Positions 5,531 through 54,788 of a stretch of DNA of 64,000 nt are shown one piece after another. The stretch comes from Clostridia bacterium (lineage in GTDB: Bacteria; Bacillota; Clostridia; Monoglobales; Monoglobaceae), in assembly GCA_045579055.1 (NCBI GenBank), contig JAZNLK010000136.1, positions 10,732 through 74,731 of the forward strand, in the 5' to 3' direction. Made by a program: the position numbers and the translations under genes. Under the pieces are notes generated by a model that saw nothing but the letters and a program-made list of their open reading frames with translations, made no database searches and had not been told where the DNA came from. Numbering within the stretch: position 1 is the stretch's first letter; each line of letters begins with the position of its first letter.

Positions 5531-5540
5531 AGCTTCCTCC

Positions 5541-31196: not shown

Positions 31197-32810
31197 TTAT
31201 TTGCCTTTGGTAATTTCATCAACAGTTTTCTGATAAACATCATATGTTCTCTGGTTAATTTCCTGCAACTCATCTGCACCAAGATCGTTCAGCTTTTTGA
31301 TGTAACCGTCCCAATCCTTTTCAACATCCGATCTGCCCATAATCCAGTTTGCCTTGTTTCTTTCAACATAGTTGAAAATATCTGTTTGAAGGACAGACAA
31401 TCTGCTGGAATCCTCCGGATCGTAATAGGGTCTGGGCCATGTTTCCTTGTCAATGAACGGTTCATAGAGTGCCCAGAGTTCATCATAAGTACGGAATGCA
31501 TCGCAGTCCTCAATAACCGTGCCACGATCATCTTCCAGACTCAAATAGCCTATCATATGAGGACCGTGTGGTGAATTGTTGTAGTACATTTCGCTGATTG
31601 ATTCATAGCCCTGTTCAGTGGGGTCATTCCACATAAACATATCGCCTTCTTTGTGGAATGTCTCTTTAATCTTTCCGTCTGTGTCAACTTCGCCGTACCA
31701 GTTAGTGATGGTTGCTTCTTTTGAATAGAAGGTATCAAGCCATGCCATTGCAGCCTTGGGGTCATCACAAGCAGATGTGACGTGAGCCATATTTCTTGTG
31801 CCGATTGAACCCGGGTGGATATGCACAATAGGTTTAATCTGACCATCTGCACTTATGGGAGCAATAACTTCATACTGGTCAGCATTAATGCTAAAGGGAT
31901 TTTCCTTGGCAAATGTAACACCAACAACCGGAACTTCTGATGAAAGTCTTGAGTTAAATGTGTTTGACTCAAATGTAAAGCATTCTATATCAAGAAGTCC
32001 TTCTTTGTAAATATCCGCATAGAACTTAATCATTTCTTTCCATTCATCCATCATGGGAGTGAAGTTGACTTTTCCGTTCTGAACATTCAGGTATGAATCA
32101 TACATACCGAATTTTGTTGAAACACCCCAGCATGAAAGAAGTGTTTCGGGATAGTTATATGCACCTTCGTTATAGAAGGTCATAGGGATTTCATCAGCTT
32201 TGCCGTTGCCGTTGGGGTCGCCTGTTTTGAAGGCTTTGAGAACTTCCTTAAGTTCAGGAAGAGTTGTGGGAGCATCAAGCCCAAGCTTGTCAAGCCATGC
32301 TCTGTTTATCCACCAGAAGGTTTCAATAGCTGCCCCCCGTCCGCCGCTATATGAGGGAAGAGCATAAATATGTCCGTCAGGTGATGTTGCAATAGCCTTT
32401 GTTGTGGGTCTTTCCTGGAACATTCTCCAGATATTGGGAGTGTTTTCTTCTGTGATGTAATCTTCCAGAGGAATGAGAACTTCCTGTGCCGCATACTTTG
32501 CAACATCCACATTCTGGAACTGATTTTTTGCGATAATATCGGGATAATCGCCTGATGCCATAATCATCTGAATATCGCCGCCAATCCACTCGATTTCGTA
32601 TTCAGTGTTTGCATCCCATTTGTTCTGATAAAACTCAAAAACATCTTTTGCCTCCGGCTTAGAAGAATAATCGTATCCATAAACCGTAAACTTCTTTACA
32701 CCGCCGTTTGTATTGTTAGATGCGGTTTTCTCTTCGCCGCATCCGCCGAACATAACAGCGATACCTGCTAGCATTGCAACTGCCAGAATTAATGAGATAA
32801 TTCTTTTCAT
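31197..32810 (-). CDS. Extracellular solute-binding lipoprotein (ABC family-1, LplA-like, about 537 aa)
   Basis: Lipobox MFGGC follows the signal peptide MKRIISLILAVAMLAGIAV. The size and pattern match large sugar-binding lipoproteins. An alternative start lies at 32822. Confidence 0.8.
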   Translation of the reverse strand: MKRIISLILAVAMLAGIAVMFGGCGEEKTASNNTNGGVKKFTVYGYDYSSKPEAKDVFEFYQNKWDANTEYEIEWIGGDIQMIMASGDYPDIIAKNQFQNVDVAKYAAQEVLIPLEDYITEENTPNIWRMFQERPTTKAIATSPDGHIYALPSYSGGRGAAIETFWWINRAWLDKLGLDAPTTLPELKEVLKAFKTGDPNGNGKADEIPMTFYNEGAYNYPETLLSCWGVSTKFGMYDSYLNVQNGKVNFTPMMDEWKEMIKFYADIYKEGLLDIECFTFESNTFNSRLSSEVPVVGVTFAKENPFSINADQYEVIAPISADGQIKPIVHIHPGSIGTRNMAHVTSACDDPKAAMAWLDTFYSKEATITNWYGEVDTDGKIKETFHKEGDMFMWNDPTEQGYESISEMYYNNSPHGPHMIGYLSLEDDRGTVIEDCDAFRTYDELWALYEPFIDKETWPRPYYDPEDSSRLSVLQTDIFNYVERNKANWIMGRSDVEKDWDGYIKKLNDLGADELQEINQRTYDVYQKTVDEITKGK

Positions 32811-32841
32811 AACCGTTACCATCCTTTTTTATTTCATATTT

Positions 32842-37110: not shown

Positions 37111-37124
37111 ATCATCAAACCTCC

Positions 37125-39785
37125 CTATTTCTCTTCAAGAACAAATACTGTTCTCACCGTGCTGCCCGAAATATAAACCACTACCACAGAGGCATTTTCG
37201 GGGTCATCAGCATACGTTTTAAGATCCTCAACGCTTCCTTCCGTAAAGCTTATATTGCCTCTCAGGTCTTCCATAATCATCACCTTTGCCGAAGAAAGGG
37301 GCAAAGAATCTCGTCCAACAGTTTCATCAAACTCACCGGGATCGCTTTCCAGACAGGTTGTCAGCAATAACTTACCCGATGATGCATCGAGTACTGTTCC
37401 CACAACCATACATTCGCCGTCGGCATACGGAGGATTTGTTGTACCGTGATTTCCGCCTCCAAGCTTGAAAACACGTTTTGCAGATGGATTTACAAGGCTT
37501 GGCATTGCATCGGTGGATGGGTCTGAAATTCCGATTACTTCACTCTTGATATTTGTTGTTATTCTGATGAAGTCACCGGGATTCAGCTTTTCATAAGCCG
37601 CATAGGCAGCCTCATTTATCACTTGTGTCTTGAGATTGCCGTTTCCTGCATCAATAACCTCAAGTGTCTTTACCACATCTCCGTCATCATTGAGAGCCTG
37701 CGTTTTGTCCTGAACAATAAACGACCCCCAGGTTCCGTGATTAAATACCAATCTGTATACATACGCAAAATCCGCCACACGGCTGTCAGGGTCTACGTTA
37801 CATACGTCAATGTAGTCATAATCCCATGTGTTCAGACTCATACCTTCAGCAAGATTGTAGTATTCATAATCAAGCTCCGAATATACATCCTTGAAGGGAA
37901 CACGGTATGCCCTGTTGTCCTTTGTTGCAGCAACAAACGCACCTGTGTCTCTGTTATAAAAGCTGCTGCTTGTTCTTGAATATTTATAGGATTCGGTTTC
38001 CAGGCGTCTGAGACTTGTTTCCGCATCCTCGTGGTCTGCATCGAAATAGAGTGTATCAAGTGCAATAAGCTTGCCTTCACTGTTAAGTGTATATTTAACA
38101 GGCTGTGCAACCTCACCTTCGTCATAAGGCTTTACCGAAAGCTTTGCAGATTCCAGAAGACGAGCTTTGATGTCAGCAGCCTTGCAGGCAACACCGTCAA
38201 TCTTCACATTCTTGTTCATATCAAAAGTTGCCGCCTTCAGGTCTGTCTGCATCAGACGGAACTGAATTGTGTCGCCGAAAATTTCAGGCTCACTTACGCT
38301 CACAAGGTAGCCGTAGCTGTTCATTGAACCTGCAACTTCCACAATGACAATCATATCCTCGTATGTATAGAGTGTTACTGTTGCACCTGCTTTGATTTCC
38401 GACCTGGAGTCTTCGTCCATGCCGTCCCAGAGCTTGTAGGTAACCTCACCCACCGTCACTCTTTCATCAGTCACACTGCCAAGACGTGAATTTGCTTTTG
38501 CATCCTTGAGAACCTCAATCACAACCTTGTCGTAGCCCGAATCCACTTTGGTGCGGCGTACTGCAAGAAGATCACGGTTGATTATTCTGTCGAAGTCATA
38601 TGCCTTGCCGTCCTTTGTGACACTAACCTCATCTGAATTTTCAAGCTCAAGGTCTTTTCCGTCCTGAACCGCAAAAATCGTCATTTTGCTTGGATTCGTT
38701 GACTCTGCAAGAATAAATTCCACACTATCAATCAAAACAACATCAAAAGTTTTGTCGTTGTTGTTATCAACAAGCGTAACCTTGCCGTACGCAGGCACCA
38801 TCTCTTCCGGGTCAAGTGCCGGATATGCTCCACCGTTGAAAATAATTGAAGCAGATTTGGAAATCTTGACCTCTTTGTCCTTGTTGTTCTGTTCATAAGT
38901 ATAAGTAAAATCAGAATAGCTGATAATTTCATCATAGTTCAAAATAAGCTCATTGTTTTTCTCGTCCTTAGTCATAAAAACAACATCTTTGCCATCTGCG
39001 TCTGCTTTATAATAATACTTAACCCTGTAACCAAGGAAAGCCGATGCGTCGCCGTCATAGTTATGAACTGTGCCACCGATTGAAACTGTATTGTCGTTTA
39101 TTGTATCCAGAATTTCATCAAGTCCCGTATCGGAGGTTGCATCAAGAACCGCACGGTCTGAAACCACACCGCGGAGATGCTCCGCACCCAGATAATCCTG
39201 ACTGATTTCATAGCTTATTCCGTCACCGAAGCCCACAATTTTGCAGGCAGGAGCATGAAGTGCATTGTAAATCATCTTCAGAAACTCACCGCAAGTCACT
39301 GCATCACGGATTTTAACTCCGTCCATAATTCCTGTTTTGAGCATTACGGCATCAAAGCTTGTCACCGCAATATAGTCCTTGAAACCGAGAATATTCGCAA
39401 GAACTCTTGCGGCTTCTTTGGTTGAAATGTTCTGAACAGGACGAAAACGACCGTCAGGATATCCAATCATATAACCCATATCAGAAACCGCCTTGATATA
39501 ACCAAAGTACGGAGTTTCGGTTGTTACATCGTAATAAACGCTGTCATATCCAGAAGCCGTTGCCGCCGAGATGTCCGTCAGCTTGCAGAAATACTCCGCT
39601 GCCTGAGCTCTTGTGAGACTCTTTTCAAGGTCAACCGAGTCCGCATCTTCAATAATATCGAATGCTGCAAGAAGTGCCAGTTGCTTGGCTGTCACAGCTT
39701 CAGATTCCGCCTCAGAAAAGGCAGGAATATAAAGAGCTGATACAACCAGAACCAATGACAAAATAAGTGCTGATATTTTTTTCAT
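37125..39785 (-). CDS. SLH-domain surface protein A4 (886 aa; N-terminal SLH repeats plus a long beta-rich region)
   Basis: The ATG at 39785 (MKKISALILSLVLVVSALYIPAFS) has RBS GGAAGGAA. SLH-like repeats are present (TRAQAAEYFCKL; FGYIKAVSDMGYMIGYPDGRFRPVQNISTKEAARVLANIL). It is a paralog of 56978-60250. Confidence 0.8.
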   Translation of the reverse strand: MKKISALILSLVLVVSALYIPAFSEAESEAVTAKQLALLAAFDIIEDADSVDLEKSLTRAQAAEYFCKLTDISAATASGYDSVYYDVTTETPYFGYIKAVSDMGYMIGYPDGRFRPVQNISTKEAARVLANILGFKDYIAVTSFDAVMLKTGIMDGVKIRDAVTCGEFLKMIYNALHAPACKIVGFGDGISYEISQDYLGAEHLRGVVSDRAVLDATSDTGLDEILDTINDNTVSIGGTVHNYDGDASAFLGYRVKYYYKADADGKDVVFMTKDEKNNELILNYDEIISYSDFTYTYEQNNKDKEVKISKSASIIFNGGAYPALDPEEMVPAYGKVTLVDNNNDKTFDVVLIDSVEFILAESTNPSKMTIFAVQDGKDLELENSDEVSVTKDGKAYDFDRIINRDLLAVRRTKVDSGYDKVVIEVLKDAKANSRLGSVTDERVTVGEVTYKLWDGMDEDSRSEIKAGATVTLYTYEDMIVIVEVAGSMNSYGYLVSVSEPEIFGDTIQFRLMQTDLKAATFDMNKNVKIDGVACKAADIKARLLESAKLSVKPYDEGEVAQPVKYTLNSEGKLIALDTLYFDADHEDAETSLRRLETESYKYSRTSSSFYNRDTGAFVAATKDNRAYRVPFKDVYSELDYEYYNLAEGMSLNTWDYDYIDVCNVDPDSRVADFAYVYRLVFNHGTWGSFIVQDKTQALNDDGDVVKTLEVIDAGNGNLKTQVINEAAYAAYEKLNPGDFIRITTNIKSEVIGISDPSTDAMPSLVNPSAKRVFKLGGGNHGTTNPPYADGECMVVGTVLDASSGKLLLTTCLESDPGEFDETVGRDSLPLSSAKVMIMEDLRGNISFTEGSVEDLKTYADDPENASVVVVYISGSTVRTVFVLEEK

Positions 39786-39804
39786 AATATTTCCTTCCTT
39801 TCTG

Positions 39805-42168
39805 TTAAATCTGACCTTCAATATATTTGAATATGTTGTGGAAGAACACAGCCGCTTCCGCACGGGTTACGGGGTTATTGGGGTTGAAGTTGCCCAAATC
39901 ATCACCCTGAACAATTCCCGCCTGCTGGAATGTCACCACGTCATTGTATGCATATTCAGGAATTTCGATATAGTCACCAAACACCTTTGCAGGGGTCTTT
40001 TCTTCAATAAGAAATCCCTTTGAACGAATGAGACGTGCCGCCATTGCCACCATATCAGCACGGGTAACATTTTCACCGATACCGAATGTTCCGTCACCCT
40101 TGCCCTTTGTAACCCCAAGGGCATAAGCCGTGCAAATCGTGTCAAAATACCATTCGCCGTTCTTCACATCGGCAAAAACATTTGTCCCGCCTGATTTTGC
40201 GTCAATATAACAGGTCTTGAGGAGCATTGAAAGCAGTTCTTCACGGGTCACACTGTCTCCAGGACGGTAATTTCCCTTTCCGTCACCCTGAACAACGCTG
40301 ATATTACGCAATGCATTGATTGCCTTCTCTGCCCATTCATAACCTTCAAGGTCTTTGAAAGCTTCAACGGGCTTTCTTTCTTCTTCAAGAGGAGTTTTTT
40401 CGGGTTCGATAACAATATCGGGAGCGATTTCAACATTTGTTGAACCGCCGGAGAAGCCTCCTCCGCCGCCACCGCCGCCTGAAGGTCTGGATACCTTGTC
40501 TTCTTCTGCCTCTTCTTCAAATTCCTTCTGTTCTTCATACGCAATCTTATAGGCATCAATAATATCCTGAACACATTCAAAGGTCTTTCCAACCATTCTC
40601 AAATATACGCCCTTGCTGCTGACTTTTTTGTTGTCTTCCGAAAGCTCTTTCAGTTCTTCATAGGTTGATGAAACCTCCGCAAGGTCTGCAAAATCGTCTT
40701 CGATTGCCTTTTCCATTTTCGCCCACAGCTCACGTTCTGAATAATCATTCATCTTGTCGATGAAGGTCTTCACATTATTTGCAATTTCATCAAGCACAAT
40801 TATTTCTGTCGCAACCTCTTCGGGAACTGTGATGCTGTCATAATCCTTTTCCGCAAACAGTTCACAAAGAATTTTTGTCTTTGCTTCGCTGTAGCCTGCA
40901 CCAACCGCAAGAATTTCGCTGTATTCATCAAGGAACGCCTTTGCCTCGGTCGTATCGGTGATTGTCTTGAATTCATCGGTCATTTCGGTGAGAACCGCCT
41001 CGGAATAAAGAGGAATTATGAACTGATATGTATTCACATCAAAGCCCGAAACACGAATTCTTCCCTCATCCCGATCGCCGTAAAGACTTGGGTCAACAGC
41101 AAAGGTTGCCGAAAATGCACCTTCCTGGTCAGTCTTAACCTGATAGATTGTCAGAAGTGCAGGACCTGCCGCATTGGAGTCAATTGCGTGGAATACAATA
41201 TTTCTCACAGCAAAATCATCAACTCTGCCTGATATTGTAATACGGTTTCCGTTTATTGAAATCTTCCATTCATCCGCAAAATCAAATGCACGGTCATCTG
41301 TCACCTTGCCGTATATGGTTTCCGCATCCAGCTGAGCTTCTCTTGCCGCCACAAAAGCCGCTTCCACATCCGCAAATGTGGTATATGCCTCGGTGTAACT
41401 TTCAGCCAGTTTTTTATACATTTCAGTCTCGTTCTGAATGAGGGGAACCGCTGTGCTGAAGGGGAGTATATGTGCATAAGTAACCGTCAAAAGATTCTTC
41501 AGAGCACCAATATCGCCGTTTTCACCCGCTTCATTAATTGCATCGAAAAAGGCTCTGTATTCTGTTATGTATTCCAACAAGCCGTTAATCGTTGTGGCAA
41601 CCGAAGTACAGTCTTCAACCTCCGTCGGGGGATTATTCTCATAACTCTGATACATCAGTTCAAGCTCGTCCTGAGAATATGTTTCGGAAATTCCCAGCAT
41701 CTCGTTGTATGATGCAAAAAACTCACCCAAAGCCTGTGCACTTGTTATTGCCCCGAATGCCTCAACACAAGCATCAATCTCCGCCTGTGAATAAAGAGGA
41801 ATGCCGATTATTTTTCTTGAATTGTAACCCAATGCCCCCACCGTAATTGAGGCAGTGGCATCCGCATCATATCTTTCAGGGTTCAGAACAAGCATAAATT
41901 CGAACGTGCCTGCCGCATCGGAGAACACCTGACGTGATGCAATGTTTGTGGTGCCGTCTGTTACATAAAATGAAACACTTGTCTTTTTTGCAGTTGCCAC
42001 CGAACCGCTGACTGTCACTGTATTCGCAACTGTTCTGACTGTAAGATTTTTGAAATCACCCTTAGTACTGTCGGAGGTTACCGCATCGCCCATAAGTGCC
42101 GCCGAAACCGAAGCCGTCAGCATACAAACTGTCAAAGCAAGGGCAACCAAGATTCTTGATATTTTCAT
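39805..42168 (-). CDS. SLH-domain surface protein A3 (787 aa; two Ig-like-plus-helical modules, a poly-Gly linker and a C-terminal SLH triplet)
   Basis: A signal peptide is followed by an internal duplication (TVSGSV..SFYVTDG.. and ITISGRV..VFHAIDS..). The linker is PSGGGGGGGGFSGGS. Three SLH repeats are present (FKDLEGYEWAEKAI.., FADVKNGEWYFD.., FGDYIEIPEYAY..). Confidence 0.8.
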   Translation of the reverse strand: MKISRILVALALTVCMLTASVSAALMGDAVTSDSTKGDFKNLTVRTVANTVTVSGSVATAKKTSVSFYVTDGTTNIASRQVFSDAAGTFEFMLVLNPERYDADATASITVGALGYNSRKIIGIPLYSQAEIDACVEAFGAITSAQALGEFFASYNEMLGISETYSQDELELMYQSYENNPPTEVEDCTSVATTINGLLEYITEYRAFFDAINEAGENGDIGALKNLLTVTYAHILPFSTAVPLIQNETEMYKKLAESYTEAYTTFADVEAAFVAAREAQLDAETIYGKVTDDRAFDFADEWKISINGNRITISGRVDDFAVRNIVFHAIDSNAAGPALLTIYQVKTDQEGAFSATFAVDPSLYGDRDEGRIRVSGFDVNTYQFIIPLYSEAVLTEMTDEFKTITDTTEAKAFLDEYSEILAVGAGYSEAKTKILCELFAEKDYDSITVPEEVATEIIVLDEIANNVKTFIDKMNDYSERELWAKMEKAIEDDFADLAEVSSTYEELKELSEDNKKVSSKGVYLRMVGKTFECVQDIIDAYKIAYEEQKEFEEEAEEDKVSRPSGGGGGGGGFSGGSTNVEIAPDIVIEPEKTPLEEERKPVEAFKDLEGYEWAEKAINALRNISVVQGDGKGNYRPGDSVTREELLSMLLKTCYIDAKSGGTNVFADVKNGEWYFDTICTAYALGVTKGKGDGTFGIGENVTRADMVAMAARLIRSKGFLIEEKTPAKVFGDYIEIPEYAYNDVVTFQQAGIVQGDDLGNFNPNNPVTRAEAAVFFHNIFKYIEGQI

Positions 42169-42181
42169 ATTTTTGCCCTCC

Positions 42182-43147
42182 TTATCTTAATTCCACTGCA
42201 TCCGAAAGCGGTCTGATATTCATCATATCATCCAGAACATAAAGCCCTGCAAAACCGCCCTCCAACTTGTCTGCAAAATCTGTTGTGTCAACTTCAATTG
42301 TAACATCATTGTCGCCCACAGCCAGGTCTTTCACAACCTGTGTACAGTTGACCATTCTCATATTCTTATCAAAGAACACCATAACGGGAGTTGCTGTTGA
42401 ACCCTTGGCATAATAGGTTACACCATTATCGGTTGCCTTTGTCACATCACCGCAGACGATTTTCATATCCGCTGCGAGAGTTCCTGCTGTAACATCTTCA
42501 ATTCCCGAAACCTCGCTTCCGTCCATACTGAACAGAACGGCCTTAGCATAAACGCCTTCGAAAATTCTTATATTATCAAAATAACTGCTATGCTTCAGAC
42601 AATACATTCTCCACATGGCACTGGCTTCACCGGTATTGGCAATAGATGTGTTTACAACAAATCCAAAAGGTTCATTCACATCTCTCTTTTTGCGGTAAAC
42701 CGTACCTCCGCTGACATCCTCGTTCATTACCATAACATAAGTATACCAAGTATCCGCTTCATGAGAAAGTGCCGATATTTGCAAAACACACTTGGGTCTG
42801 TCACCATCAATGGTACCACCGTTCAACTCAACATATATATATCCACCGTCAACCTTCTGCCCGATTTTGAAGTCAAACATCATAACACCGCCATTGGGAA
42901 GGCTCGAAACAGATGAGTTGATTCTGTTAAGTAGAGTTTCACCGGTGCTGTTGTCAAAATGCACAACAGTATTGTCCCCTTCAGTCACTTCAACTCTTGC
43001 CGCACCCTTGGGTGGATCGTTTGCCTCAAACACATCCACTCCGTTTTCGAAGTCCACATTCAGATATTCCGCCGCAGACACACCAACTGTCAGCAATAGG
43101 CAGACAATTGCCGTCATCAAAGCCACTTTTAAAATCTTTTTTAGCAT
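42182..43147 (-). CDS. Small secreted lectin-like protein A2 (321 aa; jelly-roll plus a C-terminal beta-sandwich module)
   Basis: The ATG at 43147 (MLKKILKVALMTAIVCLLLTVGVSAA) has RBS GGGAGGG. It belongs to the same family as 43161-44213 and 53105-54622. Confidence 0.7.
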   Translation of the reverse strand: MLKKILKVALMTAIVCLLLTVGVSAAEYLNVDFENGVDVFEANDPPKGAARVEVTEGDNTVVHFDNSTGETLLNRINSSVSSLPNGGVMMFDFKIGQKVDGGYIYVELNGGTIDGDRPKCVLQISALSHEADTWYTYVMVMNEDVSGGTVYRKKRDVNEPFGFVVNTSIANTGEASAMWRMYCLKHSSYFDNIRIFEGVYAKAVLFSMDGSEVSGIEDVTAGTLAADMKIVCGDVTKATDNGVTYYAKGSTATPVMVFFDKNMRMVNCTQVVKDLAVGDNDVTIEVDTTDFADKLEGGFAGLYVLDDMMNIRPLSDAVELR

Positions 43148-43160
43148 TGTTATCCCTCCC

Positions 43161-44213
43161 TTAGTAAAGCTCAACAGCATCCATCAAAGGCTCTGCCGTG
43201 ACGAAGTCCTTCCACATATAGTAGCCGATGTAGCCACCGTCCAGCTTGTCATAAAATCCCGATGTATCAATATCCAAAGATATGGTCTGCTTGCCGGCTT
43301 TCACCGTAACACCCTCAAGGGTAACGCAATCAATCATCTTGCCTGACGCATCATAAACAACCGCAAAGGGAAAAACCTCTCCACCGTCGGTAACTATTGT
43401 CTGACCGCCCGACACCGTTGTCTTAACATCTCCGCTGATAAAATCCGTTGTGGCAGTGAGTGTTCCGTTTGTGACCTGACTCAGCTCAGTGATTGCTTCG
43501 CCGTCCATTTCAAAGTGTCCGCCGGTTCCCACACCGCCCTGACAAAAGCAGATGTTGTCAATCATATAGTCAACCTGACCGCCATAAATACGGAAGTCAC
43601 CATTGACAGTTCCGGTCACATTTCCTCTTGCCTGGTTTCTCACAAAAGTATAAGGCTCATCAGAGTCTCTTTCCTTGCGGTAAAGTGCCAAGGATGAAAA
43701 ATCGCTGTTCACGTGAGCAATATATGAATACCAAACATCATTCTCGGGAGTGAGACGGAAGCCGTCAGCATAATTCATCATTGTCAGACCGATTCTGGGA
43801 CGGTTGCCCGAAGGACCACCCTTGCTAAGCTCAATCATAACATATTTTATAGCATTGCTTGCCGTCAGATCACCGGTTGTTGAAAGCTGTATAAAGTCAA
43901 AAGCAAACATACATTCGCCATCAATAACGCTTGATGCCGCCATATGGCTGTCAATTACACCTGCACCGCTTGCACCTGATTTTCGGTTCACAAACTTCAC
44001 AACCGTGTTGCCCGGCTTATAGGGATCCTCAATTACTTCGCGCATCAAAAGCTCCGAATTGGAAGTGCCGCTGGAAAATCCGCTTTTGTTGTCGTTTTCC
44101 GAAACATTCTCAAAGTCCTGATAAAAAGGCTGTACTCCTGCCGCAGATACATTCACCGCAAAAAGCGACAAAAGCATCACACACACAAGCATCATTGTTA
44201 AAACTTTTTTCAT
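43161..44213 (-). CDS. Small secreted lectin-like protein A1 (350 aa); first gene of the locus A operon
   Basis: Signal peptide MKKVLTMMLVCVMLLSLFAVNVSAA. RBS AAGGAGG. The C-terminal module ends GYYMWKDFVTAEPLMDAVELY. Confidence 0.7.
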   Translation of the reverse strand: MKKVLTMMLVCVMLLSLFAVNVSAAGVQPFYQDFENVSENDNKSGFSSGTSNSELLMREVIEDPYKPGNTVVKFVNRKSGASGAGVIDSHMAASSVIDGECMFAFDFIQLSTTGDLTASNAIKYVMIELSKGGPSGNRPRIGLTMMNYADGFRLTPENDVWYSYIAHVNSDFSSLALYRKERDSDEPYTFVRNQARGNVTGTVNGDFRIYGGQVDYMIDNICFCQGGVGTGGHFEMDGEAITELSQVTNGTLTATTDFISGDVKTTVSGGQTIVTDGGEVFPFAVVYDASGKMIDCVTLEGVTVKAGKQTISLDIDTSGFYDKLDGGYIGYYMWKDFVTAEPLMDAVELY

Positions 44214-44259: not shown

Positions 44260-44288
44260 ATTATATATATAATACAGTCAAAAGTAAA
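44260..44288 (-). promoter_or_regulatory. Putative promoter of the locus A operon
   Basis: On the minus strand, TTTACT (44288-44283), a 17-nt spacer, then TATAAT (44265-44260). It lies 7 nt downstream of motif copy (b). Confidence 0.5.
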
Positions 44289-44295: not shown

Positions 44296-44325
44296 TTCTA
44301 CTTTTTTTATTGATATATCCTACTG
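44296..44325 (-). promoter_or_regulatory. Copy (b) of the 29-bp direct-repeat motif
   Basis: The minus-strand reading is CAGTAGGATATATCAATAAAAAAAGTAGAA. A flanking block of about 55 nt is homologous to 46216-46270. Confidence 0.5.
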
Positions 44326-46192: not shown

Positions 46193-46221
46193 AGTATAGC
46201 TACAACACTTCAGAAAGTCAA
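46193..46221 (-). promoter_or_regulatory. Promoter of the GH2 gene
   Basis: On the minus strand, TTGACT (46221-46216), a 17-nt spacer, then TATACT (46198-46193). It lies 7 nt downstream of motif copy (c). Confidence 0.55.
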
Positions 46222-46228
46222 TGCAAAA

Positions 46229-46257
46229 TTCTACTTTTTTATTGACATATTCTACTG
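46229..46257. promoter_or_regulatory. Copy (c) of the 29-bp direct-repeat motif in the GH2/AraC divergent region
   Basis: The minus-strand reading is CAGTAGAATATGTCAATAAAAAAGTAGAA. It overlaps the -35 box of the plus-strand AraC promoter. Confidence 0.55.
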
Positions 46258-46270
46258 TTTGCTGTAAAAT
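46242..46270 (+). promoter_or_regulatory. Promoter of the AraC regulator gene at 46294
   Basis: TTGACA (46242-46247), a 17-nt spacer, then TAAAAT (46265-46270). RBS GAGGAG precedes the ATG at 46294. Confidence 0.65.
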
Positions 46271-46293: not shown

Positions 46294-47070
46294 ATGAATT
46301 TTCTGACTATCCAGCCATTATTTCCCGAACGCAAGATGTTCAGCATAAACCGACCCGACTTGGGCGAAACCGCAATCTGTTGTCATTTTCTCGCACCTGT
46401 AACAGTATGGTTCGGCGAAACAGAAATAAAGCTTCAACCCGGTGCCTGTATTTTTTGGGACTTTCACGCTCATCAACATTATGCCTGGACGGACCGTGTT
46501 TTTCTGCACAATTGGTTCCACGCAGATGACTCAATGCATTCTCTTATGGAAAAATACAAATTGGAATACGAAACCGTCTACTATCCCCGGGACAACGACG
46601 CAATAACCAAGATATTCCAGCAAATCAACATTGAATTAACCCAAAAATCTGCATTTTATCAGGATGCAGTTGATGCCCTTGCAGAAAGCTTCTTTATCGA
46701 AGTTGCCCGCTCCGACAAGATGGAAAAAATAACCTCACCGATTAATTCCGAGCAAAAAGAGCATTTTTTATCTGTGCGTTCACAGATTCATATGGAAATT
46801 CATAAGCCCTGGACGGTTGAGGATATGGCAAAATATGCCAATATGAGCCCCTCAAGATTTTATGAGCTTTACAAGAAATTCTTCGGTATTTCACCCCAAA
46901 AAGACTTGATTATCCGAAGAATTCACGCCGCACAAGCGATGCTTGAACGTGGAGATATGACCATCGCAAAGGTTGCAGAGTTGACGGGCTACACCAACCA
47001 GTATCACTTCATCCGTCAGTTCAAGCAGATAACCGGAAAAACCCCGGGACAAACAAAAGCGAAAAAATAA
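46294..47070 (+). CDS. AraC family transcriptional regulator
   Basis: The C-terminus holds a double HTH (WTVEDMAKYANMSPSRFYELYKKFFGISP...ELTGYTNQYHFIRQFKQITGKTP), and the N-terminus is a cupin-like sensor domain. Confidence 0.85.
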   Translation: MNFLTIQPLFPERKMFSINRPDLGETAICCHFLAPVTVWFGETEIKLQPGACIFWDFHAHQHYAWTDRVFLHNWFHADDSMHSLMEKYKLEYETVYYPRDNDAITKIFQQINIELTQKSAFYQDAVDALAESFFIEVARSDKMEKITSPINSEQKEHFLSVRSQIHMEIHKPWTVEDMAKYANMSPSRFYELYKKFFGISPQKDLIIRRIHAAQAMLERGDMTIAKVAELTGYTNQYHFIRQFKQITGKTPGQTKAKK

Positions 47071-47185: not shown

Positions 47186-50100
47186 TTAAAATGTGTCGGT
47201 CAAATCAATATCTTTCGATATCGGCTCACCGTCCGCCGTCCAGAAAAATGCACGCATTTTACCGTTTTCTTCCTTTACCTTGTTGTAAAGTGCACTTCCT
47301 GCATACATCACAAACTGTTGACTTTCACCCTTTCCGAAATCCAGCTCAGCACTGCCTTCAAAATCAGTGGAAATAAGCTTGCCTTCCGCATCAAAATATC
47401 CGATAATTGGCATAAACTCACTTTGTTCAACATCTGTCGCCAGCACATTCAGCTTATTGTACACCTTGTCGTCCTCGCTGAAGTATTCCACCTCAGCGGC
47501 ACCAAGTTGCGACACCAACGCATTGTCAATTGCCCACTTTGAGCCAAGCCCCGTAAGGCTGGCGCCCGTTGACGTGGGGTCATTGCCCACCTGACTCTGA
47601 GTTGCCTCAATCGCGAAAGCAAAATGCTTTGTCCAACTGCTGCTTATGGGCAAAGTCTGGGACTTTACAACAGGAGCCTCGTGATTGTCGGGATTATCGG
47701 TTACAACCATAATTTCAGTATATTCCGAATCTGTTTTTAGCTTTCTGTAAGCCTTCTTTACTCCATTTTCCTCAACAAGCTTATAGGTATACCAAGTTCC
47801 GATTTCAACATCGTTTGCCGGTATAATCCATCCGTCATTGTTGGCTGAATACATCTGAACAGAAAGAGAATGTCCAAGTGCCAGCTTGCATATATCAACC
47901 GTCAGCTGATAATTGTCGGTAGGCATTGTTTGAACATCGCCGTTGAGTTCATATCTTCCCCAAGTATGTCCCGATTCAACGGTTCTTTCCATAATCCAAT
48001 GAGTGTTACAATCTTTAGTGCAGTATTCGGGAGTAAAGGTTCCCCAGACTCCGTCCTGACCTTCAAAATCCTTGCGGAAAACAACCCCCGATGTGAGCTT
48101 TGCCGTCTGATTATAAACCTTTACATTATCCAGCCAATAATGGGTAGTAAATGCATTCTTACCGTTTTCCGTTGTGATATTACCAGTGAAGGCTGCATAA
48201 CGTGGGTCACTGACAATTCTCACTCTGTTGTAGTTGCTGCTTCCTATTATGTTTGCCGAAGCAGTAGCCGCAGCCGCCTTTCCCATTCCCGTTTCAGGGT
48301 CTGTAACAATCACCAGAGGAGTTTTGCCGTCAACATACCTTGTTTCAACAGTATACCACTTGTCCTTTTTCGGTATTGCAGAGGCAGGAATCACAATAAT
48401 CCTTCCGCTGCCGTCATCATTGTCGGCAAGCTCCACACCGATTGCAACCCCTTCATCCTTTTTCAGAATATCATAGGTCACAACAACACCGTTTTTTAGG
48501 TCTATGTCAAATCCGTTTTGGCTTCCTGTGGCCTGAGAAGTGGCAAAGCCGTCAAAGGAGTAGGTTGAGCCTGATGTGTTGTTGGTTATGGTGATATCCA
48601 GAACCTTGTTGCCTGTTCCGTCATCAACCACCTTTAATATATCATCATAAGCATCCGAACTTGAACCCGGAGCCGCATCAACGGTCACACCACTTTTGCC
48701 GCTGTCATAATCCTGAACAAAAATCAGATGCTTGTCACCGAACATTGTTCCTGTCAGGTCTTCCACGCCTGTTCCCGATTTCGGAGCATAGTTCAGATAT
48801 TCATTAAGATAAGATGCCGATGCAACCTCACCGCTCCAGAGAACGAAGCTATCCTCCATATCCGAAATATTCTTACCGAAGGCTTCCGCACAGGCATCAA
48901 TGTCAAGATACCCCTTTGACAGGCAGACTTCACCAAAAGTCTTTGTTGCACCGTTCACGGAATATGTGTTTGCACCTTCTGTGAACACAACTTCACCGTC
49001 ACCGATGCTGAAAACAAGATTGTTTCCGCTGACCTTTGATGTCGCACCGAAAATCTTTCCGATTACTGTCGCATCATACTTTCCGTCAATAACCGTCACA
49101 TCAACGCTTTCGCCGTAAATCATTGCCGTTCCCGACATCTTGGGAACAAAACATAAGGTATCGGAAACAGAACCTGAACTTTCACCCCAGTTATATCTTT
49201 CGTGCACTTCTTCAAATCGTTTCTGACTTCTCACCTTGCTCTTGTCAATTGCATAAGTGATTGAACGTCTTGGTGTGTGAAGATTATTCCACTGGATATA
49301 AACCGTGTCGCCGAACACACGCAGAACGTGGTTGCAGGCATCGTAGGATGGGAACTGGCTCTGTTCATTGAGCGTTGCCACAAACTCCCAGGACTCCATT
49401 CCGTCATAGCTGACCATAAGTGCAAAGCGGTTGCGGGGGCGGTGCTGATACCGATAATCATAGGTCACCGCATCATACTGCATAATTGCCCAGTAGGTGT
49501 TGAGATCCTCGCTGTCACGTTCCACCGCATAAGTACAAAGAGGTGAAATCAGCTGAGACGGTCTCCACTCATCAAAGCTCACACCATTATCCCTTGAGTC
49601 ACAATACATAACAAAACCCTCGCCGGAACGTGCGAACCAGCGGATTGTGCCGTCAGGGAGCTCAACGTGAGAACCTTCCTGAAGATTCATTCCATCCTCA
49701 CCGCTGTTGTAGGTGGTTTCCGATCTATACCAGTTTTTCAGGTCATCGGAATAAAAAGTGTCCATTTCATTGATTGTTCCGTATTCACTGAATCCATAGC
49801 CGGGACTGATGAAAACACGTCCGTTCTTCGCCTGAGTTATGCTGCCTGTCAGAACAACACGTCTCTGGTCATCATCCTCGTTCATATATCCCACTCGTGT
49901 CCAGGTTTTCGCATCATCGGATGAAACCCATATCTCCACCGGATTGGTAAGTTCTCCGGTACGCAGCTCCATAAGTCTTCCGTCATTGAGACGGATTCGG
50001 TTTTCGGTGGCAGAGCTTGCGGTATATTCCGACCAGGTTTCACCGCCGTCGGTGGTCTTTATGTGTCCGTTTGCCTGAATATAAACCGCACCTGTCTTAT

Positions 50101-52777
50101 CTTCCCAGATTTCCGCAATTCCCACTTTATCGCTGATTGTTGCAGTCTTCACCGCCGCCGTAACCGCACAGCGACCCTCATATTCCAGATTGTCAATTGC
50201 GGCTGAACCGTCGGTTACTCCAAATCCTATATATCCATTGAGAGGGAAGTTGAGATTTTCCTTTTTTGCAACGGTCACTCCGTCACAAATCAGTTCAATG
50301 TATGAATCCTTGAGCTTGAGTTCAAAATCATGCCAAGCATTCATTGTAGGTGCCGCTCCCGAAAAATCAGTACGACTGTCGGCTTTGAAAGAACCGAACT
50401 GGCTCCACTCATCAATATACCATTTGCCGCTTGTGAAATCGTAACCCGCTTTCAGGTCATACCAGTTTTTAAAACGTCTTGCTGTCACATAGAAGTTACT
50501 TGTGCCGTTGAGCTTTGCTGACCACTTTGCATTCACGTCATAGCTCTGCCCGTTGAGAAGATATGCACCACCGCTGATTGTCATTACACCGCCTTCAACC
50601 ACGGCATTTCCGCCGTCAGAAAGCCAGAAATCAAGGGGTTCAAACTCAGTGTTGCCTTCAAAATCCTCCCTGTGATAAAACAAATCGTCCGTATTCTTTA
50701 TCGAAACAATTGTTGAAGCCTCCGGATTTTCCATTGTGCGGATAAGCTCCGCAGGTCTGGGATTTGAAGGCATCGCAAATGAACCCTTGTAAATATTGTC
50801 GCACCATACCTGTGCAAGACCCTTGGCAACCGTAATTCGCCAGTAACCTTTCGCAACATCCCCCTCAAGAACAATTTCATCCTCGCCGCCCAGAGTATTC
50901 TGCATCATTGCAAGAAGAACTCCGTTCTTCATTGAAAGGTCAATCTTATAAAATCCGTCATAAAAAACTATACTTTCATCAGACGCATCCGTTTTATCGA
51001 ACTCAATTGAATAATTATGACCGATATTTTCAATTCTCTTTCTGTATTCGTCCTTTTGTAGCCATTCTTCTTCAAAAACAAGGTTTTTCACCCCTGTTTC
51101 CGACTTCGTAAAGCCCGAAATACCGCTATATTCAACATTTACCTCACTTGTCCTCGGCATCAGGAAGGAACCGGCAAAATGTCCGTTATAATAAATCATT
51201 CCATAGCCCGAGGTTGTCACAATACGATAGTCGCCCTGCCCAAGAGGAAAGCTTTCCGCCCCGTCAATGGTTTTCACAACAACAGAATTGTCGGAATGTG
51301 TCATATTCAGTTCAAAATAGCCGTCAGCCACATTCACCTCACCCTGACCGCCCTCAAAGGAGTAGTCAAGCATATATTCACGAGCCGAGTTAATTCCCAC
51401 ACTTTCGCTTTCGTTTTGTGCAGATTTCACGGTTATGATGCTTTCAACGTCGCCTGCCTGTCCCACACCTGCAGACACACGGTATGTTCCTATCTTTGCA
51501 TTCTTCAGCACATATTCATAGTTCGGAGCATAGCCCCTGCCCACATTAAGACCGTTCACAAAGAAATCAACATAATCAACAGAATTTGTCACCGTTGCCT
51601 TGAAGGTTATGTTGCCTCCTTCGGCAAATTCTCCGCCGTTTGCAGGTGTTGAAAGACTGATTTCGGGGAAATAGGGCTTGTAGTGAATATTTCCCAGTTC
51701 AAGGTGACAGTCTTCGTTGCCCACAGCTTCAACCATAATGCGGAAAAGCGGTTTCATTCCTGCGGATGCGGGCATACGGTATCTTGTGACCTGACCGCCA
51801 TCCATATAGATTGTGACGTATTCTCCTCTGATTTCGAACTTCCAATGGTGCAGGTCGTTTCCGATGTCGGTAAGGATTCCGTAGTCACCGGTGGATGATG
51901 TTTCGGCAGAAACACATCTGATTCTGTCAGGGCTAAGGTAATGATAGTTGTTGTAGCCATTAGTTGCCGCCTTCAACACAATTGATTCCGAACCGTAATT
52001 GTGAATCTGAAGGTCAAAGTCCATATCAAAATTATCAGGGGTCTTGGGGGCACGTTCCACCTGAAAATACCCCGACTTGTCCTTGATTTTGAACTCAATA
52101 TTACCATTACTATTCACAAAAATCTCATCACAGTCAGTGATTGTCCAGCCCTCTGTGGACGTTGCCCAGTTGGTTGTGAATTCTGAGGCATATTCTGTTT
52201 CAGCAGGAGCTGTGAGAATCATTGGCGACAAATCGCTTCCGTCAGGCTTGGTGATTGAAAAATCCTTCACCTGAACTGCACCGTCAGGAGTTGCCCCGGA
52301 TGTGCAGAAATAAGCAAATTTACCCCATGAATTGTCCTGAGCCGTTCCCGTTGCGAAATAGGTATCATCAATATAGATATCAAAAGCTTCGTTTCTCACT
52401 TTAAGCTTGTATGTATGCCAATTTGTGTCGGTGGTGTGCATCCAGTATTTGCCGTTGAAATCCCAGATTCTGTCCTTATATACATAGATTCCGGCACGGT
52501 GCTTGCCTGTGCAGAAGTAAGCAGCCTGAAAGGCATTTGTTCCCCACTCCGACACACGCATTGAAAAGCTGACATCAAAGCTGTCGGGAATATTCAGGGT
52601 CTTTCTCGCCTCAGAAGCTGTATTCATCGTGAGAGTTGACCCGGAATAGGATATGTTTTTTGTTTGCCAGCCTGACCAGGGATAAGTGGTTGCCGCAGAT
52701 GCATCAATGGGTGTAAACACCGGAGCGATGCAAGTTAATATCATAACCAAAGTCATCAAAAACGCAATTTTTTTCAT
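47186..52777 (-). CDS. Giant secreted protein B5 (1863 aa): paralog of A5 with about 480 extra C-terminal residues carrying further jelly-roll modules and the shared C-terminal beta-sandwich module
   Basis: Signal peptide MKKIAFLMTLVMILTCIAPVFTPIDASAA. Asp-boxes TTDGGETW, SSDDAKTW, SRDNGVSF and SYDGMESW. It shares a 35-aa identical block with A5. No SLH or LPXTG motif is present. Confidence 0.8.
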   Translation of the reverse strand: MKKIAFLMTLVMILTCIAPVFTPIDASAATTYPWSGWQTKNISYSGSTLTMNTASEARKTLNIPDSFDVSFSMRVSEWGTNAFQAAYFCTGKHRAGIYVYKDRIWDFNGKYWMHTTDTNWHTYKLKVRNEAFDIYIDDTYFATGTAQDNSWGKFAYFCTSGATPDGAVQVKDFSITKPDGSDLSPMILTAPAETEYASEFTTNWATSTEGWTITDCDEIFVNSNGNIEFKIKDKSGYFQVERAPKTPDNFDMDFDLQIHNYGSESIVLKAATNGYNNYHYLSPDRIRCVSAETSSTGDYGILTDIGNDLHHWKFEIRGEYVTIYMDGGQVTRYRMPASAGMKPLFRIMVEAVGNEDCHLELGNIHYKPYFPEISLSTPANGGEFAEGGNITFKATVTNSVDYVDFFVNGLNVGRGYAPNYEYVLKNAKIGTYRVSAGVGQAGDVESIITVKSAQNESESVGINSAREYMLDYSFEGGQGEVNVADGYFELNMTHSDNSVVVKTIDGAESFPLGQGDYRIVTTSGYGMIYYNGHFAGSFLMPRTSEVNVEYSGISGFTKSETGVKNLVFEEEWLQKDEYRKRIENIGHNYSIEFDKTDASDESIVFYDGFYKIDLSMKNGVLLAMMQNTLGGEDEIVLEGDVAKGYWRITVAKGLAQVWCDNIYKGSFAMPSNPRPAELIRTMENPEASTIVSIKNTDDLFYHREDFEGNTEFEPLDFWLSDGGNAVVEGGVMTISGGAYLLNGQSYDVNAKWSAKLNGTSNFYVTARRFKNWYDLKAGYDFTSGKWYIDEWSQFGSFKADSRTDFSGAAPTMNAWHDFELKLKDSYIELICDGVTVAKKENLNFPLNGYIGFGVTDGSAAIDNLEYEGRCAVTAAVKTATISDKVGIAEIWEDKTGAVYIQANGHIKTTDGGETWSEYTASSATENRIRLNDGRLMELRTGELTNPVEIWVSSDDAKTWTRVGYMNEDDDQRRVVLTGSITQAKNGRVFISPGYGFSEYGTINEMDTFYSDDLKNWYRSETTYNSGEDGMNLQEGSHVELPDGTIRWFARSGEGFVMYCDSRDNGVSFDEWRPSQLISPLCTYAVERDSEDLNTYWAIMQYDAVTYDYRYQHRPRNRFALMVSYDGMESWEFVATLNEQSQFPSYDACNHVLRVFGDTVYIQWNNLHTPRRSITYAIDKSKVRSQKRFEEVHERYNWGESSGSVSDTLCFVPKMSGTAMIYGESVDVTVIDGKYDATVIGKIFGATSKVSGNNLVFSIGDGEVVFTEGANTYSVNGATKTFGEVCLSKGYLDIDACAEAFGKNISDMEDSFVLWSGEVASASYLNEYLNYAPKSGTGVEDLTGTMFGDKHLIFVQDYDSGKSGVTVDAAPGSSSDAYDDILKVVDDGTGNKVLDITITNNTSGSTYSFDGFATSQATGSQNGFDIDLKNGVVVTYDILKKDEGVAIGVELADNDDGSGRIIVIPASAIPKKDKWYTVETRYVDGKTPLVIVTDPETGMGKAAAATASANIIGSSNYNRVRIVSDPRYAAFTGNITTENGKNAFTTHYWLDNVKVYNQTAKLTSGVVFRKDFEGQDGVWGTFTPEYCTKDCNTHWIMERTVESGHTWGRYELNGDVQTMPTDNYQLTVDICKLALGHSLSVQMYSANNDGWIIPANDVEIGTWYTYKLVEENGVKKAYRKLKTDSEYTEIMVVTDNPDNHEAPVVKSQTLPISSSWTKHFAFAIEATQSQVGNDPTSTGASLTGLGSKWAIDNALVSQLGAAEVEYFSEDDKVYNKLNVLATDVEQSEFMPIIGYFDAEGKLISTDFEGSAELDFGKGESQQFVMYAGSALYNKVKEENGKMRAFFWTADGEPISKDIDLTDTF

Positions 52778-53104: not shown

Positions 53105-54622
53105 TTATTTAACAATCATTTCAGCAACATTCATTACGTCACGGATCGGAACAAGTGTTCCCATTGAATCCAAAAGGAATACCTTCGCAACAAGGTTTTC
53201 TGCACGTGAATCAGTTTCAAGGTTCACATCAACTGTGCCTTCAACACTGATATCAGCCGCTGCAGCGCCCTTGAACACATCGCCGTCATAAAACGCAACG
53301 ATTGCTGTGTAGTTTCCGTTGGGTTTTGTGATACCAAGTTCACCAACAATACCTGTCTCGGTCTGTTCAAAAGCTCCTGTTATAGCTACATCCAATGAGT
53401 TTGTAACCTGAATATTGTCAACAGTCCAGACTGTGTTTGCATCAACTACATCTTTGCTGGCACCATAAACGTGTGCATTACCACCTGACAAATAAACCAA
53501 ACGAATACTATCTGTATTACTACCTGTAATTTGACCAGTTGTATAGTCAACATCAACAGTCAATTCTTCCCATTCGGTTTCGCCTTCAGCTTTTCTAAAA
53601 AGGGTCATCACTGGGGCAAACCCAGATGAACGCCAAGGTTCTGCATTACCCTTGTAGGTATACTTCACGTCTTTTTCACCAACGTCACCAAGATGAATTG
53701 TACATGATTTATTGCTGGTAGCACCTTTTGAATGAAGAATAAAGCTAATGGGCTGGTCACCGCCTGTTCTCACAGCATCAAATGTAATGCTGTAATAGCT
53801 GGCATTGAGGTCTGTAAAATTAATACCTGTATTTCTCAACCAGGTATCAGCACCGCCAACCGATGTAATGGAAGACTCTGTGTTGGTATAAACAACATTT
53901 CTTTGATTGGGATAATATTTTGTAATAACCGCGTTATCCAGATAATAGTGAGCATTAAAGAGATTTGCCGTATCAACTGAAGCTGCACCCAGATTTATAT
54001 ATCTGGTGTCAAGCCCCAAATGAAATGTTGCTCCGCCACGACCGCCTGTTATATGACAAGTTGTTCCCGGAACAAGCTTTGTGTAGGCTGAATCGGGAGC
54101 ATCGGTCATCTTAACATAATAGTTCTTAACACCATTGTCCACATCAACCTTAACTGTGTTCCACATTCCATCTACAAGCGCCGAAGGATAAATGTGAACA
54201 CCTTCATAGTTGGAAAAGACAAGCGAAAAGCCGGTTGTGTTTACCACAGGATACAAATCAAAGGTAAATGTATACTTTGAACCAACAGCTGAAACACTCG
54301 AAAGGAATCCGCTTTCATATACCTGTGCCATAACATGCTTTGCAGCCTTGGTATAATCAACGTTTGCATCATACGCGGAACCGTCATATTTGAATTCCAT
54401 AACATTGTTGCCGTCAACATCTACAATACCCCATGTGCCACCTGTAGCACCATCTACCGTTTTCAGCTGTGATGAAGTACTTTCGTCTGCCCCGCCATCA
54501 AAATTTCTGACAAAGATATCAGCAGTCTTACCATAATATGCGGGAATTGCAGCATTTGTGTTGATTGCCATGAAACTTAAAAGCATCATCAGGCAAAGAG
54601 CCAAACTTATTACTTTTTTCAT
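53105..54622 (-). CDS. Secreted lectin-like protein B4 (505 aa; two jelly-roll-like modules plus the shared C-terminal module)
   Basis: Signal peptide MKKVISLALCLMMLLSFMAINTNAA. RBS AAGGAGG. The C-terminal module reads ..AIVAFYDGDVFKG..KVFLLDSMGTLVPIRDV. Confidence 0.7.
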   Translation of the reverse strand: MKKVISLALCLMMLLSFMAINTNAAIPAYYGKTADIFVRNFDGGADESTSSQLKTVDGATGGTWGIVDVDGNNVMEFKYDGSAYDANVDYTKAAKHVMAQVYESGFLSSVSAVGSKYTFTFDLYPVVNTTGFSLVFSNYEGVHIYPSALVDGMWNTVKVDVDNGVKNYYVKMTDAPDSAYTKLVPGTTCHITGGRGGATFHLGLDTRYINLGAASVDTANLFNAHYYLDNAVITKYYPNQRNVVYTNTESSITSVGGADTWLRNTGINFTDLNASYYSITFDAVRTGGDQPISFILHSKGATSNKSCTIHLGDVGEKDVKYTYKGNAEPWRSSGFAPVMTLFRKAEGETEWEELTVDVDYTTGQITGSNTDSIRLVYLSGGNAHVYGASKDVVDANTVWTVDNIQVTNSLDVAITGAFEQTETGIVGELGITKPNGNYTAIVAFYDGDVFKGAAAADISVEGTVDVNLETDSRAENLVAKVFLLDSMGTLVPIRDVMNVAEMIVK

Positions 54623-54724
54623 AAATTTTCCTCCTTAAATTAGAGTTTTGCATTCTTCTGAAAACCAAAGATTCATCCTTTGGTGGCCGGATTCAGAAAG
54701 AATAATTTAATTCTTTGTAGTTTC

Positions 54725-54753
54725 ATCTTAACCCAATTATGCTCAATTGTAAA
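54725..54753 (-). promoter_or_regulatory. Putative promoter of B4
   Basis: On the minus strand, TTTACA (54753-54748), a 17-nt spacer, then TAAGAT (54730-54725). It lies 6 nt downstream of motif copy (d). Confidence 0.45.
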
Positions 54754-54759: not shown

Positions 54760-54788
54760 TTCCTACTGAAAAAGTTGACATATCCTCC
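54760..54788 (-). promoter_or_regulatory. Copy (d) of the 29-bp direct-repeat motif
   Basis: The minus-strand reading is GGAGGATATGTCAACTTTTTCAGTAGGAA. Confidence 0.5.

Follow-up and report, generated by a model that had tools for sequence, protein, structure and literature searches.

The question raised by this locus is which protein recognises a direct-repeat motif that recurs in four copies (a to d) along a 64,000-nt stretch of contig JAZNLK010000136.1 (positions 10,732 to 74,731; assembly GCA_045579055.1, a Clostridia bacterium of the Monoglobaceae), referred to here as the window, and what the protein does there. One of the copies, c, lies in the divergent intergenic region between the gene for an AraC/XylS-family regulator of 258 amino acids (aa) and a glycosidase gene of family GH2, and a first-pass annotation of the DNA had taken the motif for a candidate operator of this local regulator, with the geometry of AraC/XylS activator sites. 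Our analysis of the sequence points the same way: the motif is probably the operator of the regulator encoded at 46294–47070, which would use it both for class II activation of its target genes and for repression of its own gene. The evidence comes from loci of regulator homologues, from a search for the motif alone, from a fixed spacing between motif and promoter, and from the AraC fold of the protein.

All four copies were found on the minus strand at the places given by the first-pass annotation, and all four are intergenic, a placement with p ~9e-6 in a window of which 5.5% is intergenic. The motif is 27–28 bp long and consists of a distal half-site, H1, and a promoter-proximal half-site, H2, whose starts measure 21 bp apart in copy c and 22 bp in copies a, b and d, in agreement with the 21–22 bp originally proposed. 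The consensus itself had to be corrected: the spacer in front of the second block, written as N7 before AGTAGRAA, is N5–6, and the literal pattern has no matches even with three mismatches allowed, while copy d begins with GGAG rather than with the GTAG ascribed to it. The 15-mer with up to two mismatches occurs six times in the window against 0.65 expected, the four copies carrying 0–1 mismatches, and GTAGRA-N14–18-GTAGRA occurs three times against 0.11 expected. A two-block weight matrix, trained only on ten sites from other genomes and with the −35 box left out, gives copies a to d the top four scores of the window (24.9–32.4 bits); in 30 simulated windows the highest score averaged 13.7 bits and never exceeded 20.2 bits. 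A fifth matrix match of 20.9 bits (35683–35709, minus strand, GGCGAAAATGTAAAT...ATAGAA), within the open reading frame (ORF) of a 1422-aa BNR protein, is at the edge of this null and was treated as chance. The shorter bipartite pattern RTAGRA-N5-YAWY has 12 matches in the window where 3.45 would be expected; operators account for 6 of these, with its second boxes (B-boxes) confounded with −35 hexamers.

The motif alone, as the strict pattern GTAGRAWATRTCAAY-N5–6-AGTAGRA and with no promoter or gene information, was searched for in 185,579 species, one genome each, totalling 596 gigabases. There were nine matches, six of which came from metagenome-assembled genomes (MAGs) of gut or rumen Clostridia, and these are intergenic without exception. 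Five of these six separate a regulator homologue (44–47% identity) from the accompanying GH2 gene; the other one (L013 in our numbering of loci from other genomes) is upstream of a lipoprotein gene, is followed by N7 and then by TTGATT-N16-TATAAT, and has no regulator gene within 6 kb. The three remaining matches, in Pedobacter, SR1 and Thioalkalispiraceae, are inside ORFs and have no −35 box at the offset; with about 4 to 22 matches expected by chance from base composition, three are consistent with chance. The genome-wide search recommended in the first-pass annotation thus speaks for an operator, the in-gene matches being limited to unrelated phyla. Among metagenome contigs of the Joint Genome Institute (JGI), a pattern including the −35 box matched twice, once in a further AraC/GH2 locus (L026) and once, by chance, inside a gene.

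We also approached the question from the protein, and fetched nine homologue loci by protein only, with regulator identities from 82% to 36%. The motif is present in the divergent intergenic region of the regulator gene at eight of them (L001, L004, L006, L008, L010, L011, L021 and L023); the ninth is that of P0007 (L002/L003), discussed below. The aligned layout is RTAGRA-WAWGTCAAT-N6/7-RTAGRA-N7, followed by TTTAC(A/T) or TTGAYT and, after N16–18, by TAnnnT; the distance between the starts of the two RTAGRA blocks is 21 or 22 bp at each of the 17 sites, and H1 and H2 both have G1-T2-A3-G4-R5-A6 and C12-A13. Over eleven independent lineages, information content peaks only at H1, H2, the −35 box and the regulator-side −10 box, the remaining intergenic DNA being unconserved. 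Sites orthologous to copy c occur at L001, L004, L010, L011, L012, L019, L020, L021 and L023. The divergent partner is a GH2 orthologue (55–92% identity) in ten other distinct loci, and in L008 it is the secreted-protein/SLH/BNR operon itself; since the partner genes vary in this way, it is the regulator gene and the motif that constitute the constant pair. L006 (8859–10000) holds a 42%-identical homologue with the site GTAGAAAATGTCAAT...GCAGGA, divergent from a ResB/CcsA cytochrome-c biogenesis cluster that is followed by large HZS_alpha/Tricorn_N-like proteins, and the regulator family is therefore not restricted to glycosidase loci.

Additional sites were found away from the regulator promoter. 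L008 has a second one (12971–12998) upstream of a 600-aa gene that lies downstream of the regulator gene, with the same lineage-specific ATAG...ATAG as its regulator-adjacent site; the layout of that locus, operator, regulator gene (plus strand), gene on the minus strand and operator again, is the same as in the window. The RTCAAY box is kept at sites with no adjacent regulator gene or opposing −10 box, namely window copies a, b and d, L001 18306–18333, L013 and L008 12971–12998, so that GTCAA is more than the −35 box of the regulator gene. The ATTTTCA or TTTTTCA spacer between the half-sites and the AAAAACA between H2 and the −35 box are common to L020 6400–6427 (a regulator–GH2 locus of an Ornithomonoglobus MAG), L001 18306–18333 and window copy d, and other lineages have an A-tract instead; the likeness of these three sites could reflect transfer of a module or a requirement for bending.

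A promoter scan recovered the −35 and −10 hexamers that had been proposed for copies b, c and d, as well as the near-consensus plus-strand promoter of the AraC gene overlapping copy c (Table 1). The gap between the proximal GTAGRA and the −35 box is exactly 7 nt in these three copies, and it is 7 nt in every site compared across loci except window copy a; the predicted −35 to −10 spacers behind operator sites are 16–18 nt long, the −35 boxes are consensus-like, and the GH2-side promoter geometry of copy c recurs at all orthologous loci. The claim of a fixed distance thus stands for three of the window copies and fails for copy a, where the scan found no minus-strand −35 box at that distance. 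The nearest minus-strand promoter, TTGAAA-17-TATAAT for the DUF4145 gene, starts 51 nt further on, and copy a lies, in inverted orientation, 17 nt upstream of the −35 box of the plus-strand promoter of an FG-GAP protein gene, to which, and not to any promoter of the minus strand, we assign it.

On the regulator side, the −35 box of the AraC gene is the reverse complement of the GTCAA box in H1 of copy c, and the H1 GTAGAA is within the promoter spacer. This arrangement is general: each of the 12 sites adjacent to a regulator gene has TTGAC(A/T)-N17-TAnnnT on its opposite strand, overlapping H1, with the H1 GTAGRA falling in the spacer of the regulator-gene promoter. The overlap supports the earlier suggestion of autoregulation; its direction, autorepression, is what we infer from that position. 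The regulator's own −35 box is TTGACA in 11 of the 12 and the target −35 boxes are mostly TTTAC(A/T), which suggests that the latter are under a second constraint, from the protein as well. Metatranscriptome contigs mapped on L012, a relative of the window locus, reach the 5′ end of the GH2 gene up to position 1961 and the regulator gene from position 2026, with none across the operator, although they are few, of low depth, possibly contaminated with DNA and too thin to bear interpretation.

The regulator has both defining domains of the AraC/XylS family, a two-HTH C-terminal domain and, by model, a cupin-type N-terminal domain. Its C-terminal region of about 100 aa matches Pfam HTH_18 (1.4e-18) and HTH_AraC (2.1e-19) in two stretches, corresponding to two helix-turn-helix (HTH) motifs, and a PDB sequence search yielded the DNA-binding domains of AraC, AdpA and YesN. 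The N-domain has no Pfam match. The AlphaFold2 (AF2) model, with a predicted local distance difference test score (pLDDT) of 89, places seven helices in residues 152–247 and predicts for the N-domain eight strands plus helices 101–117 and 122–138, that is, a cupin followed by two long helices. Foldseek matched the model to the AraC N-terminal domain (2arc and 1xja; TMt scores of 0.6–0.68), to 2k9s, to the BgaR N-terminal domain, and to full-length Rns, ToxT and CsvR. Neither recognition helix (residues 185–193 and 237–243) varies among 34 sequences reaching down to 30% identity, which fits the conservation of the operator. The subfamily is small, comprising 37 protein clusters; those with a named source are attributed to Clostridiales or Ruminococcaceae MAGs. 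Orthology to AraC was rejected, as NF007860 scored 56.2 bits against a cut-off of 208; since all 24 NCBIfam equivalogs were far below their cut-offs, the regulator is not an orthologue of any named member.

From the conservation of the motif, its linkage to the regulator gene, its geometry and the protein fold, all of them observed, we infer binding, dimer stoichiometry, direction of regulation, transcription starts and an inducer as follows. A dimer would bind two direct-repeat half-sites with starts 21–22 bp apart, one two-HTH DNA-binding domain to each half-site. The half-site appears to be bipartite, GTAGRA-N5-YAWY, with one helical turn between its two boxes, the spacing that the paired HTH motifs of a single AraC-type domain would lead one to expect. 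H1 (GTAGRAWATGTCAAY) would be the strong match to this consensus, and the proximal H2 (RTAGRA-N5-CATT) would run into the −35 hexamer. When the −35 box is numbered −35 to −30, H1 would extend from about −70 to −55 and H2 from about −48 to −34, with its hexamer at −48 to −43, which is a class II position. Three units would be activated, namely the GH2 gene (through copy c), an operon of about 13 kb for surface, BNR and solute-binding proteins (copy b), and the unit composed of the genes for a 505-aa secreted protein and BNR 1863 (copy d), by a form of the protein that presumably carries a sugar set free when the regulon enzymes act on their substrate. As H1 covers the −35 box and spacer of the regulator's own promoter, its occupancy should shut that promoter and so repress synthesis of the regulator. 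By analogy with araI1 and araI2, H1 may act as a strong anchor and H2 as a weaker, possibly inducer-dependent contact. Copy a, reversed and occupying roughly −80 to −53 relative to the FG-GAP promoter, is a possible class I site.

Several observations weigh against this proposal. Most target promoters are near consensus (TTTACA-17-TATAAT), as promoters that depend strictly on an activator seldom are, so that the protein could also act as a repressor or in a dual role; the GTCAAT of H1 at regulator-adjacent sites and the B-box of H2 are each confounded with a −35 hexamer, and the bipartite model was built on few independent sites; copy a is off the fixed geometry; and a regulator paralogue designated P0007 (L002/L003, beside a LarC-like gene) has no canonical site upstream (L002 7346–7486) despite invariant recognition helices. 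Assembly JAQXZB contains two regulator paralogues, of which the GH2-adjacent one has a canonical operator (L018 4604–4630) and P0007 (51% identity) does not. The first of these points, together with the repressive position of H1 over the −35 box and spacer of the regulator's own promoter, is what would be seen if the same protein at the same operator were mainly a repressor, or a dual regulator that represses when inducer is absent, for instance by bridging H1 and H2 or distant sites; AraC of Escherichia coli is itself dual. We regard this as rather unlikely: at the target promoters the site is wholly upstream and merely abuts the −35 box, and the 7-nt offset is invariant down to 36% regulator identity, a strict phasing that is expected for contact with RNA polymerase and not for occlusion. 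It is very improbable that the AraC gene is near the motif only incidentally and that some other factor binds in place of its product, whether a transcription factor or an alternative sigma factor with the recognition pattern GTAGRA-N16-GTAGRA. The window does encode a second AraC (8183–9184) and an HTH/sigma-r4 protein (17063–18298), but no motif copy is near either of them, ordinary −35 and −10 boxes stand downstream of the motif, and only one regulator gene, that of the 258-aa AraC homologue, accompanies the motif from locus to locus when the other gene content differs.

The similarity of the copies to each other raises the further question of whether they could be relics of duplicated promoter DNA, or an att-like recombination site, with no regulatory role, the copies a and d then being the junctions of a 31.7-kb segment that was inserted or rearranged. 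A run of 28 nt, within about 36 nt with two mismatches, is identical in copies a and d. The two copies have the operator alone in common, their outer flanks being unrelated, and form direct repeats around a 31.7-kb block (23013–54760) that holds the regulator gene and all of its targets. In L001 there is instead a single undivided intergenic region (18180–18435), between a 501-aa gene and the FG-GAP gene. On the left, this region aligns with the left flank of copy a, and the FG-GAP promoter is again 17 nt away from the operator; on the right, it aligns with the promoter and leader of copy d, and the orthologous site is at L001 18306–18333. Copies b and c, for their part, have about 60 nt of homology, and in L001 the GH2 gene and a 346-aa gene are 32 nt apart with no operator copy between them. 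The first-pass annotation had noted the homology flanking b and c and the identity of a and d, and its proposal that the promoter modules have been duplicated is supported both by these measurements and by the lack of copy b in L001. All this is compatible with operator function, to which rearrangement at operator copies would be secondary. A purely structural origin with no regulatory role is scarcely credible, for the motif persists at non-homologous promoters, and at regulator identities as low as 36%, in surroundings that are not themselves conserved; moreover, no integrase or recombinase domain is encoded by the genes adjoining a or d, nor any recombinase domain within 23013–54760, which does not agree with an attachment site of a mobile element.

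Taken as rearranged operators, the copies permit a reconstruction by comparison with L001. The window appears to be the split, duplicated form of one bidirectional control region, with 31.7 kb circularly permuted relative to L001; copy a would be the FG-GAP-side half of the ancestral divergent region, and copy b apparently arose in this lineage, as a duplicate of the c module that came to lie between the GH2 gene and the gene for a 350-aa secreted protein. The breakpoints of the a/d permutation coincide with the operator edges. Four gut metagenomes screened for structural variants at junction d had no coverage across the operator. It is tempting to generalise this to operator copies serving as substrates by which the regulon is reshaped, through duplication of operator-bearing modules or their recombination with one another, although we think such a role unlikely; this could proceed, for example, by Campbell-type integration or by permutation of the entire island, with an operator as the site. 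If true, genes would enter and leave the regulon in this way.

The features of the locus are listed in Table 1. In the operon behind copy b, the 350-aa and 332-aa secreted proteins are paralogues, the 1422-aa protein is of the Big_7/BNR type, and the 541-aa lipoprotein resembles a sugar-binding protein. Neither Pfam nor NCBIfam gave a family match for the 350-, 332- and 505-aa proteins, and the “lectin” label of the first-pass annotation could not be checked, as structure prediction for the 350-aa protein from a two-sequence alignment was unusable (pLDDT 38). No promoter or terminator was predicted between the 505-aa gene and the BNR 1863 gene, and copy d probably controls both. The leader of the 505-aa gene, about 100 nt long (54623–54722, minus strand), is conserved in L001 (18180–18290) and contains a potential hairpin CUGAA...CCAAAG...CUUUGG...UUCAG, the folding energy of which was no better than that of shuffled sequences (z = −0.93); an Rfam scan of the whole window gave no match.

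Table 1. Operator copies, promoters and genes of the proposed regulon (window coordinates)
Feature	Position	Strand	Details
Operator copy a	22985–23012	minus	GTAGGATATGTCAAC-TTTTTCA-GTAGGA; matrix 27.3 bits
Operator copy b	44296–44323	minus	GTAGGATATATCAAT-AAAAAAA-GTAGAA; matrix 26.4 bits
Operator copy c	46229–46255	minus	GTAGAATATGTCAAT-AAAAAA-GTAGAA; matrix 32.4 bits; GH2/AraC divergent region
Copy c, distal half-site H1	46241–46255	minus	GTAGAATATGTCAAT
Copy c, proximal half-site H2	46229–46234	minus	GTAGAA
Operator copy d	54761–54788	minus	GGAGGATATGTCAAC-TTTTTCA-GTAGGA; matrix 24.9 bits
GH2 gene promoter (predicted sigma-A)	46193–46221	minus	−35 TTGACT 46216–46221, −10 TATACT 46193–46198; 10/12 consensus matches
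AraC gene promoter (predicted)	46242–46270	plus	TTGACA-17-TAAAAT; 11/12 consensus matches
~13-kb operon promoter (predicted)	44260–44288	minus	TTTACT-17-TATAAT
Copy d promoter (predicted)	54725–54753	minus	TTTACA-17-TAAGAT
FG-GAP gene promoter (predicted)	23030–23058	plus	TTGACA-17-TACAAT, TG-extended
AraC/XylS-family regulator gene, 258 aa	46294–47070	plus	cupin-like N-domain, two helices, two HTH motifs
GH2 glycosidase gene, 584 aa	44407–46161	minus	divergent from regulator; best NCBIfam match beta-glucuronidase, below cut-off
~13-kb operon behind copy b	31197–44213	minus	350-aa and 332-aa secreted proteins, SLH 787, 912-aa protein, BNR 1422, 541-aa lipoprotein
505-aa secreted-protein gene	53105–54622	minus	copy d upstream
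BNR 1863 gene	47186–52777	minus	1863-aa BNR paralogue, behind 505-aa gene
FG-GAP protein gene, 936 aa	23099–25909	plus	copy a between it and DUF4145 gene (minus)

Two further regions of the window stand apart from the proposed regulon. The second AraC regulator, with a cupin recognisable by Pfam, adjoins a cluster (2498–8226) of uxaC, altronate dehydratase, mannitol-dehydrogenase-like and second GH2 genes, which looks like a hexuronate pathway; a matrix scan of the window placed no motif copy near it. Between the gene for a giant SLH protein and copy a there is a block of non-glycan genes (17063–22822), encoding the HTH_17/sigma-r4 protein mentioned above, DUF4432, SPFH and DUF4145 proteins and a protein of the metallo-beta-lactamase fold, and this block may be an insertion.

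Among the closest known systems is E. coli AraC at araI1–araI2 of pBAD; a literature search on regulators of Monoglobus yielded nothing relevant. A class II position is the one used by AraC at araI1–I2 and by XylS at Pm. The likeness to AraC extends to the N-domain of cupin and helices and the two-HTH C-domain (Foldseek matches 2arc, 1xja and 2k9s), to two bipartite direct-repeat half-sites about 21 bp apart, the proximal one reaching the (here predicted) −35 box, and to a divergent regulator gene, araC, whose own promoter (PC) is overlapped by a site. The present system differs in the half-site itself (GTAGRA-N5-YAWY), in its Gram-positive host with sigma-A promoters, and in having one compact site for both activation and autoregulation, with no distal looping site of the O2 type seen. 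XylS, whose proximal repeat abuts or overlaps the −35 box, acts at Pm of the TOL plasmid, and the 15-bp H1 followed by 6–7 bp and then H2 resembles its site in format, although the sequences are unrelated, the effectors of XylS are benzoates, and Pm is neither divergent nor autoregulatory. XylS recognises a pair of 15-bp direct repeats (TGCA-N6-GGNTA) with 6 bp between them and thus a 21-bp period, and the general format A-box-N5–7-B-box-N6-A-box-N5–7-B-box has been reported for XylS, MekR and AraC dimers (PMC4514859).

In layout, bgaR-PbgaL is the closest Firmicute analogue. The AraC-family lactose sensor BgaR of Clostridium perfringens and the adjacent PbgaL promoter are used as one cassette (PMC10312008, citing Hartman 2011). 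BgaR is likewise a Firmicute AraC-family sugar sensor, and its structures 6nwh, 6nwo and 6nx3 match the modelled N-domain with a TM score of about 0.6; N-domain identity, however, is only 11–13%, and the comparison covers layout and fold. Furthermore, the putative targets of the present regulator are several dispersed promoters for large SLH/BNR surface proteins, as opposed to the one gene of BgaR. A different kind of parallel comes from MarA, SoxS and Rob, for which the same asymmetric site acts when it overlaps the −35 box or, in reversed orientation, from further upstream. The single operator between the 501-aa and FG-GAP genes in L001, as well as copy a, is arranged in a similar way, although those proteins are monomers with one site, in contrast to the two half-sites and the N-terminal sensor domain found here.

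The mechanism proposed is a textbook one and leaves the understanding of AraC-type regulation unchanged; the finding is an in silico regulon reconstruction. The compact regulator-plus-promoter cassette of 130 bp is a candidate inducible switch for anaerobic Firmicutes, comparable to bgaR-PbgaL. The reconstruction assigns a concrete, testable regulon to a small subfamily of AraC proteins that is limited to uncultured Clostridia of gut and rumen (Ornithomonoglobus-like MAGs and MAGs labelled Ruminococcaceae). In this regulon the putative operator would link a GH2 glycosidase, very large SLH/BNR surface proteins, solute-binding lipoproteins and secreted proteins whose fold is unknown into one glycan-response unit.

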